64,000 nt of DNA, taken from the sequence record MK524178.1. The stretch is one strand, 5' to 3'. A program made the translations under genes and the position numbers. Of the stretch, positions 21,084 through 27,082 are shown one piece after another. Origin of the DNA: Escherichia phage PHB12. Under the pieces are notes generated by a model. The model did not search any database. It had not been told where the DNA came from and was given only the letters and a program-made list of their open reading frames with translations. Numbering within the stretch: position 1 is the first letter of the stretch; every line of letters begins with the position of its first letter.

Positions 21084-21983
21084 TTATTCCTCGATTATGA
21101 CATCTTCGTATTTAGGTATATTATACGGTGAAGAAATTAAAGCATTAAAGTAGATGAACTCACCAAGACCTGGATGGAATACTTCTTCAGGATTTTCGAA
21201 ATATTGAATCTTCGGCCGTCCTTTAAGAATTTGATAGTACTCAGTTTTAGTTGGTTTAAAAATTCGAATCAGTGCTTCTTCAGGATACTTATTTCTGTCG
21301 AAGCTATTATTTGGATCGGTTATATAAAGCGGTTGACCTAATTGAATTGCACATTCAACCACTTGTTCAAAACGATAACACGGGTCACTAATTCGAAATG
21401 GATGAAAAATACCATCTAGATGAATAGGAGCCAAATCACCTACAAGACGCTGCATGATGGAAGGACGTATAACTTTCTGCGTTACGATAATCTTATTACC
21501 ATCTGCACCTGCGTTAACCAGCACTTCTTTTTGACGTTCATTCAACACAGTAGTTTGAAGTGAACGATTAACAGACAACATGTCGGTTTTTAAGAATTCG
21601 TCAATATAAAAACGTGGTTTATTAGAGTCTGCAGTAATATTGAAATTGAATTCTACGTCAAAAGTGCCGTCATATCCAGTGATATCTGTGATTAGAAAAT
21701 CACAATCATAATAATCAATTAATGAATCAACCACAAATTCATTTTCAGACCAGAAATATTTACGAGTGTTATATGCGTTATCTTTATACCATAATGGAAC
21801 AAACTTAAATTCTGGGAAAAGACGTTCACATTCTTTAATATCAGATGCATTACGTGGATATGTAATTACATCACCCGGATTAGCACGGTGCAAATGAAGT
21901 TGGAAGTTGCCATCCTTAAGGATAGCATACTGTCCAGTTTCATAAGACCGCATACTCAAGATAGGTACGCGGAAAATAGCCAT
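21084..21983 (-). CDS. hypothetical protein at the beta-glucosyltransferase position
   Basis: 299 aa; no resemblance by eye to T4 Bgt; tightly packed between P-loop gene and gene 42 homologue. Confidence 0.5.
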   Translation of the reverse strand: MAIFRVPILSMRSYETGQYAILKDGNFQLHLHRANPGDVITYPRNASDIKECERLFPEFKFVPLWYKDNAYNTRKYFWSENEFVVDSLIDYYDCDFLITDITGYDGTFDVEFNFNITADSNKPRFYIDEFLKTDMLSVNRSLQTTVLNERQKEVLVNAGADGNKIIVTQKVIRPSIMQRLVGDLAPIHLDGIFHPFRISDPCYRFEQVVECAIQLGQPLYITDPNNSFDRNKYPEEALIRIFKPTKTEYYQILKGRPKIQYFENPEEVFHPGLGEFIYFNALISSPYNIPKYEDVIIEE

Positions 21984-22699
21984 TAGTCAAGGAATCCTTT
22001 AACATAATCAAAATCACGTTCAAACACATGGGCACTTACCATGGTATGAGTATAATCACCAACTTCTACACCACATTCGTTAGCGATATAATGAAGTAAT
22101 TTTCCTTGGAGATAAAAATCCAACTGCATAACAACAGCACAGTTCTGAGAACGCATATGACAGTGGGTATAAAGCTTACCATCACGAATATAATAAGTCA
22201 CTGAGTCAGTACATGGATATTCAAGTGTTTCATCCGAATCAAGCAAAGCCTGATCTGAACTTTCAAGAATTTGAAACACAACTCTTCGTGAATTAGGTTT
22301 CTCTTTAAGTTCTTTTAGAAGAGTTGGTAACTGGGCCGCAATGCGAGGACCATAGAAAGTGTTGAAGTTCGCAGGCAAAGCATCTGATTTTGGTTTAGAA
22401 ATAAATTTAGCGACGTTAGGATATGCCTTAAATGCTTCTTCTGCATCAGTACCACCAGAAATCATAAATTTCCAGAAATCTTCAGCATATTCATAAGAGA
22501 TGCGATTAATACGTGGGTCGGTCATTTTGAATGATGAAGGGGTATCAACAACTACTGTCATAGACCCAATTTCATTACAACGTCCAATACGAGAGTCAGT
22601 AACGAACTGTGGATTTTCTAAAATTTCACGATTGACAGCTTTAAATGCGGATTGAAAATCTGCGGCTTTAATATATTTCATTGTGTTATGTTTTCCCAT
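21983..22699 (-). CDS. 42: thymidylate-synthase-fold pyrimidine C5 hydroxymethylase (gene 42-like, divergent)
   Basis: 238 aa; catalytic-Cys block YPCTDSVTYYIRDGK...HMRSQN parallels T4 gp42 FMCTNTVQYLIRD...NMRSND. Confidence 0.6.
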   Translation of the reverse strand: MGKHNTMKYIKAADFQSAFKAVNREILENPQFVTDSRIGRCNEIGSMTVVVDTPSSFKMTDPRINRISYEYAEDFWKFMISGGTDAEEAFKAYPNVAKFISKPKSDALPANFNTFYGPRIAAQLPTLLKELKEKPNSRRVVFQILESSDQALLDSDETLEYPCTDSVTYYIRDGKLYTHCHMRSQNCAVVMQLDFYLQGKLLHYIANECGVEVGDYTHTMVSAHVFERDFDYVKGFLD

Positions 22700-22978: not shown

Positions 22979-24139
22979 TCATTCCGGGTACCTCAAAGCG
23001 TCATCAGAGTTAGTTATATCAATAATAGATATAGAGTTTTCTGCTAACCCATTTTTAGATAACTGACGTTTATAATATCTTTCACAATATGTACACGTCG
23101 TCCCGCAGATTTCATTAGCACAATCGAAATCTGGATGTCTGAACCACCTTTTTTCTAAAAAGCCATCTAACAAAGAGGTTTCAATATTTACTGTATGTGA
23201 AAACTCGGTTTCGTTTTCAAGAGTGAAAATAGTCTCTAAAGGCTTCCACAATTCCAACAAATTACCTTCAAATTTTTCAGAAGCATAAGCTTCAAGAACT
23301 TTCAAAATGTAGTCTGTGCTACCTGTACGTCCTGAAACTTTGAATTGAGTGATACCAATATCATTATAAAGTTTCAAATCTTGAGGACGAACAAAACGAG
23401 TTCTCAACCAGTTAAATGGGTCTGTATCACGAGCTTTAATACAGTGTTGCATTGGATATCCATTTAAGGATTTGGCATCATCTACTGTAACGTCGGTGCT
23501 ATGGAAAATATAGCAAGAGTCACGATAGCTACAATGTGTTGTATACCCTTTACCAGCATTAGAACAGAACTCATTTACAAGAACTTCAAATATTATATTG
23601 TTCTTATTACAAAACTCTGCTGCGCGTTTCAGGAAAGAAACTGAACGGTTCTTATGAATTCCACAGCAGACCTTTTTGATATTATATTGGTCATGCAAAT
23701 ATTTGATTTGAGTTACAGCATCAACATGTAGAATTGTTGAAACTTCAATCTCAATGTCTTTATTGACTTCACGAACAATTTCCATAACAACAGGGTTAGC
23801 GATAGTAATACGCCATACGCCTATTGACCAAAGATACTGAACATAATCCTGAATAGCTTTCTTCTTCCACTCAACTAGTTCTCTTTTTGAACCAGGATTT
23901 ATCGTGTTGAGTGTATAGTTAAAGCAAATACCTAATTCGTTACAACGTTTAACATAATCTTCTAACATCTTTTTGTCAACGTCAGGAAGCCTAAAATCAG
24001 GTCTGGCTGCTACAAAAGCCATTTCTCTTGTAGAGCCGTATACTTCGTTTATCAAGCTATTAGGATAAGTTTTATTGAGCTCTACGATTTTATCAAGAAG
24101 AGCTAAATCAAAATTCGTTCCGATTTTAAAGGTATTCAT
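22979..24139 (-). CDS. cysteine-cluster enzyme-like protein, unknown function
   Basis: 386 aa, 14 Cys including C-terminal CANEICGTTCTYC (C-x3-C-x3-C-x2-C); possible Fe-S or Zn site. Confidence 0.5.
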   Translation of the reverse strand: MNTFKIGTNFDLALLDKIVELNKTYPNSLINEVYGSTREMAFVAARPDFRLPDVDKKMLEDYVKRCNELGICFNYTLNTINPGSKRELVEWKKKAIQDYVQYLWSIGVWRITIANPVVMEIVREVNKDIEIEVSTILHVDAVTQIKYLHDQYNIKKVCCGIHKNRSVSFLKRAAEFCNKNNIIFEVLVNEFCSNAGKGYTTHCSYRDSCYIFHSTDVTVDDAKSLNGYPMQHCIKARDTDPFNWLRTRFVRPQDLKLYNDIGITQFKVSGRTGSTDYILKVLEAYASEKFEGNLLELWKPLETIFTLENETEFSHTVNIETSLLDGFLEKRWFRHPDFDCANEICGTTCTYCERYYKRQLSKNGLAENSISIIDITNSDDALRYPE

Positions 24140-24193: not shown

Positions 24194-24595
24194 TTATAGA
24201 TTCGGTTTATATGATTTAAATGTTTCGAATTCGCCTTTATTCATAAGAGCTTTGAATTCGTCAGGACGCATAGCTTTGTCGTCGATAATCCAATCATATA
24301 CTGGTTTATGTGTTAGCAAATTATGGTACTTCAATCCAATGTTTGCCAAGTTCTGAATCAGACTTGGGAGAATGTCAATTGCTATACGACCAGGACCGAC
24401 TGACTTCATACCGCGAGCAGTGTAAAGAGTTATTGTATGCCCTGCATCATACAGGGCATTAATGGCAGACACCATTTCGACGTCTGGTTTGAAGTTCACG
24501 TAATCACGATTGTTATTCCACTCTGTTATACAATCATCGACATCAAAACAAAGATTAAGCATGTTTTCTACACGGTGCATTAGATTCGTTCCCAT
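24194..24595 (-). CDS. HAD-superfamily phosphatase-like protein
   Basis: 133 aa; motif I FDVDDCIT and motif II TLYTARG. Confidence 0.5.
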   Translation of the reverse strand: MGTNLMHRVENMLNLCFDVDDCITEWNNNRDYVNFKPDVEMVSAINALYDAGHTITLYTARGMKSVGPGRIAIDILPSLIQNLANIGLKYHNLLTHKPVYDWIIDDKAMRPDEFKALMNKGEFETFKSYKPNL

Positions 24596-26265
24596 TGATG
24601 AGTGATATCGCCACCGATTGGACGATAGGAAACACCAGTTTCTTTATCAGTTAGTACCCATTTACCAGGATTTTTTGTAATCAGAGTAGCCGTTACAGGT
24701 TCTGCTACGTCATAACTAATAGAGCCGTCTTGAAGTACACGGCCCATGTTACGTAATTGCTTAGTCAGAAGTTCCATACCTTTATAATATGCGGCTACCG
24801 CTTTAAGTGGATTATTCTTGAAATAACCACCTAATGCAATCCAGATAATTGCTACAGCCAAATGATGATATTCATTAAACGAACTCATCTTTCCATATTT
24901 GTAAACTAATGGATTGATGTTAATAGTCACATTACAAGTTGTTTCATCAATAGTAAACTGTCCCCAGGTCGGATTAGCGTTGAATTCATCATAACCTGAA
25001 ACAGCATAAAGCACTTTAGCTTCATCGTACAATTTTGGCCCATAAATCTTGGTTTCGCCAAAATATCCACGAGGGTCGATAAACTTAACTTCGCCGTTAT
25101 CAGTAATCATAGTATTACTGAAGTTCGGGTCACCATGAATAACAGAGTACTGTCCCTGAGAACGATTATGATAACGAATAAGGTGTTCTAAAGCTTGTTT
25201 CAGCATTGGCTTCAGACGTCCAATCTTAGTGTAGTTCACATGTGTGATTTTACCAAATGAATCAATCAATGGTTGAATGCTTTCACAACGATCAATAACT
25301 TTCGTATAGAATTCTTTAGTGAAATCACGACGAACAGTTTCAGGACTTACAAAATAAGTGTCTGTGCTGAATTTCAGTGCATCTAAAATTGCATCAACAA
25401 TTTGTGGACGAGCAAGACTCGATTTGGATTTAATATATTCAAATGCCGGCTTACCTTTAATGCGTTCCATTTCAAAGTTATTTTCATTAACAGAAACTAA
25501 CTGAGGAACTGAATCTGATTTCACTTTAAGATACCATGAAATCTCATCTTTCTGAAGAGCTCGGCCCTGTTCGGTTAATGCGAATTTAGTTACAGTTTCT
25601 TCACCAATTTCAACTGCATTAAAACTACGATTAAGTTCACGAACTTCATGAGCTTTTTCAAGTTTAGGCATATCACCTAAATCAATTAGATTCATAAGCT
25701 CTGATTTATTGAATGCGCTGCCGTAAAGGAATTCTACGAAATCACGTCCTTTGCAGTATTCATGAATTTCCTCATCAGTAGAACCCATATAGAATTCCCA
25801 GTCTTTGAACTGATAAATTCCTACAACATTACCACCTGTTGAACCTACGTTAGTGATATTTTCACCGTCGAAATTATATCGACATTCGTCACCCTTAACA
25901 TAGATTGCGTTAACATTCCAAGACCATGAGCCAAAATCAGGAATAATATCACACCAGTTAACAATTACATTATGGCCGTCTAAATCTTTGTGTAATTTAG
26001 CAAGAGCATAAGCAGAACCATACGCTTCATCAACTGTACGAATAGTCACATTGAACCCTTCTTGCTCACAATAAGCTCGAACAGTTTCAGCAAATTTTGA
26101 ATGAACTACTACAATAATTTCATCTGCGCCAAGGTCAGAATAAATTGTATACAAATTGCTCAGAATAGTGTCTTGTTTATAGTTAACAAGCACCTTAGGA
26201 ATATGATGCGTTATTGGATACAAACGAGTTGCCAGTCCAGCACCAAGAATAACAGCTTTTTTCAT
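24580..26265 (-). CDS. bifunctional sugar-1-phosphate nucleotidyltransferase / APH-like sugar kinase
   Basis: 561 aa; N-terminal ILGAGLATRL (NTP-transferase G-x-G-x-R) and C-terminal HGDPNFSNTM...IDPRG (kinase catalytic/DFG-like). Confidence 0.65.
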   Translation of the reverse strand: MKKAVILGAGLATRLYPITHHIPKVLVNYKQDTILSNLYTIYSDLGADEIIVVVHSKFAETVRAYCEQEGFNVTIRTVDEAYGSAYALAKLHKDLDGHNVIVNWCDIIPDFGSWSWNVNAIYVKGDECRYNFDGENITNVGSTGGNVVGIYQFKDWEFYMGSTDEEIHEYCKGRDFVEFLYGSAFNKSELMNLIDLGDMPKLEKAHEVRELNRSFNAVEIGEETVTKFALTEQGRALQKDEISWYLKVKSDSVPQLVSVNENNFEMERIKGKPAFEYIKSKSSLARPQIVDAILDALKFSTDTYFVSPETVRRDFTKEFYTKVIDRCESIQPLIDSFGKITHVNYTKIGRLKPMLKQALEHLIRYHNRSQGQYSVIHGDPNFSNTMITDNGEVKFIDPRGYFGETKIYGPKLYDEAKVLYAVSGYDEFNANPTWGQFTIDETTCNVTININPLVYKYGKMSSFNEYHHLAVAIIWIALGGYFKNNPLKAVAAYYKGMELLTKQLRNMGRVLQDGSISYDVAEPVTATLITKNPGKWVLTDKETGVSYRPIGGDITHQWERI

Positions 26266-26306
26266 GTTGTGGTCCTCATTGGTAAGTAGGAGTATTGTAC
26301 ACTATT

Positions 26307-26450
26307 CTAGTTAAAGCATTCATACTTTGCTTGTAGTCCAATCATAATCCATCCGATTATAAGAGTCGGAATCATTACTGGAGCCGTTAAGCTCCAGTAG
26401 ATAGTCATGACAAGCATCAATAGTAAAAGTCCTATTGTTATTGCTTTCAT
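26307..26450 (-). CDS. small hydrophobic ORF coupled to isomerase gene
   Basis: 47 aa MKAITIGLLLLMLVMTIYW...; ATG overlaps stop of 26447..27082 (ATGA). Confidence 0.3.
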   Translation of the reverse strand: MKAITIGLLLLMLVMTIYWSLTAPVMIPTLIIGWIMIGLQAKYECFN

Positions 26451-27082
26451 TGTTCGCCTCGTAACATGGCACCTAGTGCACCGCCAGGGTGGAACTTAAG
26501 GAAGTCATTAGAGGTAAATCCACGTTCAGACGAAAGGTTGATAGCAAACGTATCGATAAGCGCTAACAACAATGTAGTGGACATGGTCGGAGCCAGAGAA
26601 TTCTCATCGACCTCTACTGCGATGCCTGTACAGAACGTATAATCAAAAAGAGCTTCGTATTCTTGTGGAATGTCTGGGTTACAATGCAACAGAATCTGTT
26701 TGACGTTCGGACGAATCATTTTAAGATGCTTAGCCACGCCTATCATTTCTTCAGTTTTACCGGAACGACTAATATGAATCAACACATCATTAGGCGCAAT
26801 GAATCCTGCATCACCGTGAGAATAATGCCCAGTGTTCAAGTACATACTCGGGATACCGAGTGAAGCAAATGTCTCAGAAGCTTTAGTTGCAATATTAGCA
26901 TTCTTACCAACACCTGTAATAATTACTCGGCTTTCATAATTACTAAGTCCAGGGCGTCGAAGAGTTTCTAGAATAGCATTATAACGAGCAGGGTTTTGAC
27001 TAATTACTTTGGCCATAGCGGCCAAAGAAGAAGCTTGTTTTATGATTGCGTCAATAGCGATAGTAATAGGAGTAGTTTTCAT
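26447..27082 (-). CDS. SIS-domain sugar-phosphate isomerase (KdsD/GutQ/GmhA-like)
   Basis: 211 aa; VIITGVGKNANIATKASETFASLGIPS and SRSGKTEE resemble SIS phosphosugar-binding motifs. Confidence 0.65.
   Translation of the reverse strand: MKTTPITIAIDAIIKQASSLAAMAKVISQNPARYNAILETLRRPGLSNYESRVIITGVGKNANIATKASETFASLGIPSMYLNTGHYSHGDAGFIAPNDVLIHISRSGKTEEMIGVAKHLKMIRPNVKQILLHCNPDIPQEYEALFDYTFCTGIAVEVDENSLAPTMSTTLLLALIDTFAINLSSERGFTSNDFLKFHPGGALGAMLRGEQ

Follow-up and report, generated by a model that had tools for sequence, protein, structure and literature searches.

A fused nucleotidyltransferase-kinase of an RB69-like Escherichia phage as the probable AfhE orthologue for arabinosylation of 5-hydroxycytosine

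Which nucleotide sugar is made by a phage protein in which a sugar-1-phosphate nucleotidyltransferase is fused to a kinase, and from which substrate? This question is raised by an open reading frame (ORF) on the minus strand (24580-26265) of a 64,000-nucleotide stretch of DNA from Escherichia phage PHB12 (MK524178.1), here called the window, which belongs to a Mosigvirus, an RB69-like T4-type phage. The original prediction, made without database searches, described the ORF as a fusion of both enzymes salvaging a free sugar to a nucleoside diphosphate sugar (NDP-sugar) in two steps. The ORF was confirmed: it starts with ATG, encodes 561 residues and contains the motifs ILGAGLATRL (residues 6-15), HGDPNFSNTM (377-386) and IDPRG (396-400). 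The gene product is very probably the Mosigvirus orthologue of AfhE (gp52:53 of phage RB69), a bifunctional enzyme providing the sugar donor for the arabinosylation of 5-hydroxycytosine. The enzyme is not new: for near-identical proteins of other phages, a prediction was published in 2018 and the biochemistry in 2025-2026.

Identity and domain architecture of the fused protein

The gene is 98.3% identical at the nucleotide level to ORF053c plus ORF052c of RB69, with a single indel, which is the extra C of the old GenBank record. This extra C was recognised as a sequencing error by Thomas et al. (2018), who merged both ORFs to the 561-residue ORF53_52c and suggested that its product takes part in making UDP-arabinose (PMC6024577). 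Compared to the corrected ORF53_52c, 2 of 561 residues differ (99.6% amino acid sequence identity). The gene is under purifying selection, with 26 of the 28 nucleotide differences to the RB69 copy being synonymous. The RB69 RefSeq record NC_004928.1 (6095-7781) retains the extra C (alignment column 655) and the split into ORF052c and ORF053c, and the two halves are kept as separate proteins (Q7Y586 and Q7Y585) in BFVD and UniProt.

In phage HY126 (PP658200.1), the same position is occupied by a 562-residue protein (XAN60479.1), which is 97% identical to that of PHB12 and, judged by position and architecture, is probably AfhE. RB69 gp52:53 is given as the counterpart of HY126 AfhE by Lee et al. 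(2026; PMC13326640). The gene differs from that of HY126 at 78 nucleotides, 46 of which are located within positions 25426-25605 on the minus strand (gene nucleotides 661-840, residues 221-280) in the N-lobe of the kinase, including a one-codon indel; RB69 carries the version of the window. This 180-nucleotide stretch has the look of a patch acquired by recombination with a more diverged allele. Gp82 of Acinetobacter phage DLP3 shows 57% identity, while the proteins of phages F2, DCP548, SF and JM17 are 100% identical. Apart from the patch in HY126, essentially no difference was found between HY126 AfhE, RB69 gp52:53, DLP3 gp82 and the PHB12 protein, which share architecture, length (561/562 residues), neighbours and an upstream promoter-like sequence. 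High full-length identity, a nucleotidyltransferase and a protein-kinase-like kinase in one chain, and synteny, all observed here, place the protein in the AfhE/RB69 gp52:53 family.

The N-terminal domain belongs to the sugar-1-phosphate nucleotidyltransferases (RmlA/LicC/MurU type), as seen from the Pfam profile NTP_transferase (PF00483; residues 3-99, above the cut-off), the G-x-G-x-x-R loop and the downstream lysine. The Pfam search thus bore out the transferase half of the predicted fusion, whereas the kinase families stayed below their cut-offs: no match to the APH/choline kinase profile PF01636 was obtained for the PHB12 protein, and Fructosamin_kin reached 17.1 (cut-off 22.4). Precomputed PF01636 matches are present on some of its homologues. 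The kinase half was recognised by its fold, a bilobal APH/choline kinase with beta3 lysine (K227), helix-C glutamate (E241), the Brenner motif H-x-D-x4-N (HGD-x4-N) and a DFG-like aspartate (D397-P-R-G).

An AlphaFold2 model built from 45 homologues (predicted local distance difference test, pLDDT, 93.7; predicted template modelling score, pTM, 0.90) contains both folds. The N-terminal domain matched RmlA, LicC, MurU and HddC structurally, the C-terminal domain choline kinase, LicA, APH, maltokinase and methylthioribose kinase. The model therefore does not show unrelated folds, and the likeness to LicA/LicC and AmgK/MurU that had been proposed holds at the fold level, with LicC, LicA and MurU among the best structural matches. 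Across 45 sequences, down to approximately 28% identity, the transferase residues G10, R14, K24, D106, D195, G197 and D198 and the kinase residues K227, E241, G378, D379, N384, D397, P398, R399 and G400 are invariant; both catalytic sets are also fully conserved in 15 multi-domain fusion relatives. No close solved structure was found in a sequence search of the PDB, where the best match was LicC (E = 2e-5).

That the protein is itself a DNA glycosyltransferase, as suggested for the Thanatos homologue TH1_060, or a GlmU-like enzyme is scarcely credible. Either function would agree with the CDD label as GT-A superfamily ('glycosyltransferase family A') or with GenBank annotations as 'bifunctional protein GlmU'. 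The N-terminal G-x-G-x-x-R...K signature and the matches are, however, those of pyrophosphorylases and not of transferases, the left-handed beta-helix acetyltransferase domain is absent, the C-terminal half adopts a kinase fold, and separate GT-B candidates are encoded within the module. The GlmU model TIGR01173 scored 22.1 (cut-off 366.85) and no hexapeptide-repeat matches were obtained; the NCBIfam models for GlmU, MurU, RmlA and HddC were all far below their cut-offs. With every NCBIfam equivalog far below its cut-off and no acetyltransferase domain, there is no support for the names given in GenBank, which are 'GlmU', 'mannose-1-phosphate guanyltransferase' or 'capsular polysaccharide biosynthesis protein'.

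Substrate and order of the steps

In the proposed pathway, the SIS isomerase encoded upstream would convert ribulose-5-phosphate of the host to D-arabinose-5-phosphate. The C-terminal kinase would use ATP to phosphorylate the anomeric C1 hydroxyl group, forming arabinofuranose-1,5-bisphosphate, with D379 as catalytic base, N384 and D397 as Mg2+ ligands and the K227-E241 pair holding ATP, as known from the family. The translationally coupled HAD phosphatase would remove the 5-phosphate, and the N-terminal domain would convert the resulting arabinofuranose-1-phosphate and UTP to UDP-arabinofuranose and pyrophosphate; here, family precedent would place R14 and K24 on the triphosphate and assign D106 and D195 to Mg2+. 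Finally, phage glycosyltransferases would transfer arabinose to 5-hydroxycytosine.

AfhE of HY126 is reported to be a D-arabinose-5-phosphate kinase as well as a UDP-D-arabinose pyrophosphorylase (He et al., as cited by Lee et al. 2026; PMC13326640). According to the same account, it phosphorylates arabinofuranose-5-phosphate to the 1,5-bisphosphate, the 5-phosphate is removed by the Mg2+-dependent phosphatase AfhF, and AfhE then makes UDP-arabinofuranose. The 97% identical PHB12 protein probably shares these activities. Furthermore, RB69 DNA contains mono- and di-arabinosylated 5-hydroxycytosine, and the DLP3 arabinosyltransferases use UDP-arabinofuranose as donor when acting on RB69 DNA (PMC13326640). 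The same arabinosyl-5-hydroxycytosine modification is found in Mosigvirus phage NP (PMC13390438). Inactivation of TH1_060 (54% identity) nearly abolishes propagation of the Shewanella phage Thanatos and is rescued in trans (PMC12838424); a transposon preprint on Bas46 gave no essentiality data for the gene. The anabolic direction with an NDP-sugar as end product and the inclusion of arabinose among the candidate pentoses were correctly foreseen. The two-step salvage of a free sugar was not upheld, as the gene is flanked by an isomerase and a phosphatase and as the AfhE input, in the account cited by Lee et al., is arabinose-5-phosphate, processed in three steps.

Several points weigh against the assignment and this order of steps. 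The kinase domain has sub-threshold Pfam family matches only (Fructosamin_kin, EcKL and RIO1, around residues 344-409). The equation of XAN60479.1 with AfhE is ours and not taken from the primary paper, and the activities of AfhE and AfhF are cited second hand, through Lee et al. (2026). TH1_060 was without pyrophosphorylase activity on xylose-1-phosphate and five NTPs, a non-cognate substrate (PMC12838424). The genomic context cannot decide whether kinase or phosphatase acts first, and the order is taken from the reported biochemistry of AfhE and AfhF as given by Lee et al.

The reverse order, in which the HAD phosphatase would release free D-arabinose, the kinase would phosphorylate it at C1 and the N-terminal domain would make the NDP-sugar as in the AmgK/MurU route, is improbable. 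The set of isomerase, phosphatase, kinase and nucleotidyltransferase genes fits this order equally, and the closest structural relatives of the kinase (LicA, AmgK-type kinases, maltokinase and methylthioribose kinase) use unphosphorylated substrates. A free diffusible pentose would, on the other hand, be wasteful as an intermediate, and in the heptose pathway, which draws on four enzymes of the same kinds, the kinase acts first. A further point for the reverse order is that Table 1 of Lee et al. (2026) lists a phosphatase yielding free arabinose and then a kinase yielding arabinose-1-phosphate (PMC13326640), whereas the text of that article, citing He et al., has AfhE act on arabinofuranose-5-phosphate and AfhF on the bisphosphate.

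Independent, comparative evidence on the input of the pathway comes from the phosphatases accompanying the fused enzyme elsewhere. In Mosigvirus and Dhakavirus the partner is a small HAD. Tenacibaculum phage PTm1 has His_Phos_1 in its place, a jumbo-phage-like contig of 350 kb encodes a Cof-type HAD, and the 890-955-residue fusion proteins contain HAD_2 in cis (Table 1). Judged from these family matches, a non-homologous histidine phosphatase takes over the phosphatase step in PTm1 and another HAD subtype does so on the 350-kb contig; in both, a ThyA homologue follows the phosphatase gene. Since the phosphatase partner persists despite the changes of family, the input of the pathway is probably a sugar phosphate and not an imported free sugar. 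The homologue in Vibrio phage D490 (28% identity) has no recognisable isomerase, phosphatase or ThyA-like gene among its neighbours, so not all distant homologues lie in 5-hydroxycytosine modules.

In ADP- and GDP-heptose synthesis (GmhA, HldE/HddA, GmhB, HldE/HddC), a sugar phosphate is isomerised and phosphorylated at the anomeric position to a bisphosphate, which loses its distal phosphate before nucleotidyl transfer. This is the closest analogue in pathway logic, with an SIS isomerase, an anomeric kinase acting on a sugar phosphate, a HAD bisphosphate phosphatase and a nucleotidyltransferase in common. HldE is a kinase-transferase fusion as well, and HddC matches the N-terminal domain of the PHB12 protein structurally. 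The kinases, however, share no homology (HldE has a ribokinase-like and HddA a GHMP kinase, versus the protein-kinase-like APH/choline-kinase fold in PHB12). The transferase of HldE adopts another fold, that of cytidylyltransferases, its domains are arranged in reverse order, and the substrate is a heptose instead of a pentose. Membership in HldE was rejected, as neither ribokinase-like nor cytidylyltransferase-like families or folds were among the matches; the resemblance is one of pathway logic only.

LicA/LicC (choline) and AmgK/MurU (MurNAc) are separate proteins which use unphosphorylated substrates and need no phosphatase, whereas the PHB12 protein joins both domains in one chain, the substrate reported for AfhE already carries a 5-phosphate, and the fused enzyme has a phosphatase as partner. 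The isomerase making arabinose-5-phosphate and the accompanying phosphatase argue, from context, against a free-substrate salvage type. FKP, the L-fucokinase/GDP-fucose pyrophosphorylase of Bacteroides, and the arabino/fucokinase-pyrophosphorylases of Leishmania, which make GDP-D-arabinose, combine an N-terminal pyrophosphorylase and a C-terminal anomeric kinase in one chain. They share the domain order with the PHB12 protein but have a GHMP kinase, a free sugar as substrate and GDP-pyranoses as products. MtnK (5-methylthioribose kinase) is a stand-alone enzyme of methionine salvage without transferase domain, and its substrate carries a 5-methylthio group instead of a phosphate.

Another specificity within the same architecture, that is, the use of another pentose phosphate or of a nucleotide that is not UTP (giving for instance a GDP- or CDP-sugar), is very unlikely. 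The nucleotide base preference is not readable from the sequence, database labels are inconsistent ('mannose-1-phosphate guanyltransferase', 'guanylyltransferase'), and the segment VDEAYGSA aligns with the EEEPLGTA region of GDP-mannose pyrophosphorylase. The protein is, however, 97-99.6% identical to those of phages with arabinose on the 5-hydroxycytosine of their DNA, UDP-arabinofuranose functions as donor in vitro, AfhE is reported, in the account of Lee et al., as a UDP-D-arabinose pyrophosphorylase, and the isomerase encoded upstream belongs to the KdsD/GutQ type.

Module partners and expression signals

The ORFs surrounding the module belong to a T4-type replication module (gp41, UvsX, gp43 polymerase, RegA, gp62/44/45). 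Over 6.6 kb around the gene, the window shows 97.6-98.5% identity to many Mosigvirus phages. In RB69-like phages, but not in T4, the module with the fused gene is located between uvsX and gene 43. In the window it encodes, all on the minus strand, the SIS isomerase, a 47-residue ORF, the fused enzyme, the HAD phosphatase, a Peptidase_U32 protein, a thymidylate synthase homologue, a 299-residue protein and a P-loop nucleotide kinase (Table 1). The isomerase, the 47-residue ORF and the HAD phosphatase are each 100% identical between the window and HY126.

Table 1. Features of the fused gene, its module and the phosphatase partners of its relatives (window positions unless a contig is named)
Feature	Position	Strand	Evidence or remark
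Whole gene, 561 residues and stop	24580..26265	minus	Orthologue of RB69 ORF53_52c (gp52:53) and HY126 XAN60479.1 (AfhE position)
N-terminal domain, residues ~1-205, sugar-1-phosphate nucleotidyltransferase (pyrophosphorylase) fold	25651..26265	minus	G10-x-G12-x-x-R14, K24; acidic D106, D195/D198
C-terminal kinase domain, residues ~210-507, choline-kinase/APH/fructosamine-kinase fold	24745..25638	minus	K227, E241, H377-G-D379-x4-N384, D397-P-R-G
C-terminal tail, residues 508-561 (54 residues), small beta-rich extension	24583..24744	minus	Motif TKxPxKWxLxDxETGxxYxP...W
Shine-Dalgarno sequence GAGGA	26273..26277	minus	Sequence; 7 nucleotides from the ATG of the fused gene
T4 middle-promoter-like site	26294..26318	minus	Sequence; MotA box TGCTTTA, 12 nucleotides, TACAAT
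SIS-domain arabinose-5-phosphate isomerase (RB69 gp55), upstream partner	26447..27082	minus	Pfam SIS; NCBIfam KpsF/GutQ/KdsD-like; PDB 3etn, 5uqi, 2xhz
47-residue, strongly hydrophobic ORF MKAITIGLLLLMLVMTIYWSLTAPVMIPTLIIGWIMIGLQAKYECFN, between isomerase and fused gene	26307-26450	minus	ATG overlaps isomerase stop (ATGA)
128-residue HAD phosphatase (RB69 gp51, AfhF position), downstream partner	24194..24580	minus	100% identical to PDB 9iqw
386-residue Peptidase_U32 protein (RB69 gp50)	22979-24139	minus	Two genes downstream of the fused gene, after the HAD gene; within the 5-hydroxycytosine module
Thymidylate synthase homologue, 5-hydroxy-dCMP synthase (RB69 gp48), makes the acceptor base	21983..22699	minus	Pfam Thymidylat_synt; 99% to PDB 9iqc/9ir2/9iqu; function PMC13326640
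299-residue protein (RB69 gp46:47), proposed first DNA arabinosyltransferase, NDP-arabinose consumer	21084..21983	minus	Synteny with RB69 and HY126; assignment PMC13326640
Phosphatase partner in Mosigvirus and Dhakavirus			Small HAD
Phosphatase partner in Tenacibaculum phage PTm1	L009 7571-8275		His_Phos_1 (E = 9e-23), then ThyA homologue
Phosphatase partner on 350-kb jumbo-phage-like contig	L010 9557-10111		Cof-type HAD; SIS, GT2, ThyA-like and EndoIV-like nearby
890-955-residue fusion proteins, phosphatase partner included	L003 8001-10781; L012 8001-10679, 1-2144		HAD_2 in cis; HAD-(SIS)-nucleotidyltransferase-kinase

The stop codon of the fused gene overlaps the start of the HAD phosphatase gene as TAATG. 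The middle-promoter-like site, which ends 29 nucleotides upstream of the ATG, is conserved in HY126 and RB69, and the MotA-box pattern was found 14 times in the window compared to 2.1 expected occurrences. By analogy to the T4 middle-promoter consensus, which we take to apply here, the site probably functions as a promoter. Another match to the pattern (24988-25013, minus strand) is located within the coding sequence, about 400 nucleotides upstream of the HAD gene, and may either serve the downstream genes as an internal promoter or have arisen by chance. A scan for sigma-70 promoters and terminators showed no enrichment in the window (26 found, 26.9 expected).

The label 'putative phosphosugar isomerase' given to the 47-residue ORF in one record is implausible. 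The HAD phosphatase is related to PDB 1xpj and to the capsule biosynthesis phosphatase family TIGR01689; in databases it is widely mislabelled 'phosphoheptose isomerase'. CrpP of Haemophilus influenzae type b (Hib) was rejected as a relative, as it is a capped HAD of 218 residues to which homology was not established, and is kept as chemical precedent only, for the 5-dephosphorylation of a C1-substituted pentofuranose. The ThyA-like protein of the window differs from PDB 9iqc at E87K and T126A, and HY126 differs from the window at exactly the same two positions. These identities and the shared two-position difference indicate that the HAD and ThyA-like structures in the PDB are those of HY126 proteins. 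For the 299-residue protein, no Pfam or PDB sequence match was found.

Members of the U32 family are O2-independent, prephenate-dependent hydroxylases, such as RlhA, which forms 5-hydroxycytidine in 23S rRNA (PMC5727448), TrhP, which forms ho5U in tRNA (PMC6599085), and UbiU/V of ubiquinone synthesis (PMC10990095). Since the known 5-hydroxy-dCMP synthase needs O2 and flavin, the U32 protein of the module could be an anaerobic back-up cytosine hydroxylase. It is rich in cysteines, with a C-terminal C-x4-C-x3-C-x2-C motif, and shows a faint match to UbiU; Lee et al. label it a 'sugar or heterocycle reductase' (PMC13326640). Dhakavirus JS10, which is without the U32 protein, speaks against the hydroxylase function. 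The protein was found in 221 phage records with at least 82% identity throughout, the host genera listed being Enterobacterales and Shewanella; Acinetobacter is not among them, yet the nucleotidyltransferase-kinase is found in 57 Acinetobacter phage records.

Distribution, C-terminal tail and significance

A phage-encoded enzyme of this type had been considered unusual, a view at odds with its occurrence in 373 phage records (tblastn), among them phages of Escherichia, Acinetobacter, Klebsiella, Vibrio, Shigella and Serratia, and with its discussion in the literature since 2018 (PMC6024577). When 1.84 billion cluster representatives were searched exhaustively, 135 clusters matched with E <= 1e-30 and 477 with E <= 1e-10; the majority of the 150 best matches cover both domains.

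In the 890-955-residue relatives, HAD_2, SIS (missing in some), nucleotidyltransferase and kinase are fused, and all catalytic residues are retained. Such proteins would carry every step from ribulose-5-phosphate to the NDP-pentose in one chain. Their contigs encode Rpb2, Rpb10, MutS with an HNH domain, an Atg3-like protein, dUTPase, sugar epimerases and GT2, and no ThyA homologue was found on them. From this gene content they look like giant-virus DNA, which suggests that the pathway feeds glycans there and not DNA modification. One of these proteins (P0091) comes from a eukaryotic transcriptome.

The C-terminal tail (pLDDT 77-86) is conserved in the clade of T4-like phages only, down to 37% identity, and is absent from the jumbo-phage, giant-virus-like and other distant homologues. 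It matched no Pfam family (best E = 0.13), and a hidden Markov model of the tail detected no second copy in a six-frame translation of the window. A function as docking module, linking the enzyme with the phosphatase partner or with the nucleotide-synthesis and replication machinery of the phage, is a doubtful but conceivable explanation; if it were true, the bisphosphate intermediate or UDP-arabinose would be channelled instead of released. No mention of the tail was found in the accessible literature. The tail may be new. The same may hold for the exchange of the phosphatase partner for members of non-homologous families, for the fusions of four domains encoded on giant-virus-like contigs and for the idea that the U32 protein offers a way to 5-hydroxycytosine without O2; all of these are minor points.

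The assignment corrects the annotation of the gene, which most GenBank records give as 'hypothetical', 'GlmU' or 'guanylyltransferase', as well as the reading of the pathway, from salvage of a free sugar to a route via a sugar-phosphate bisphosphate. To our knowledge, UDP-arabinofuranose is a nucleotide sugar not known in Enterobacteriaceae. Its supply would let RB69-like phages put arabinose on every cytosine and evade restriction enzymes and CRISPR nucleases, which is of relevance for phage therapy, phage engineering and the enzymatic synthesis of rare nucleotide sugars.

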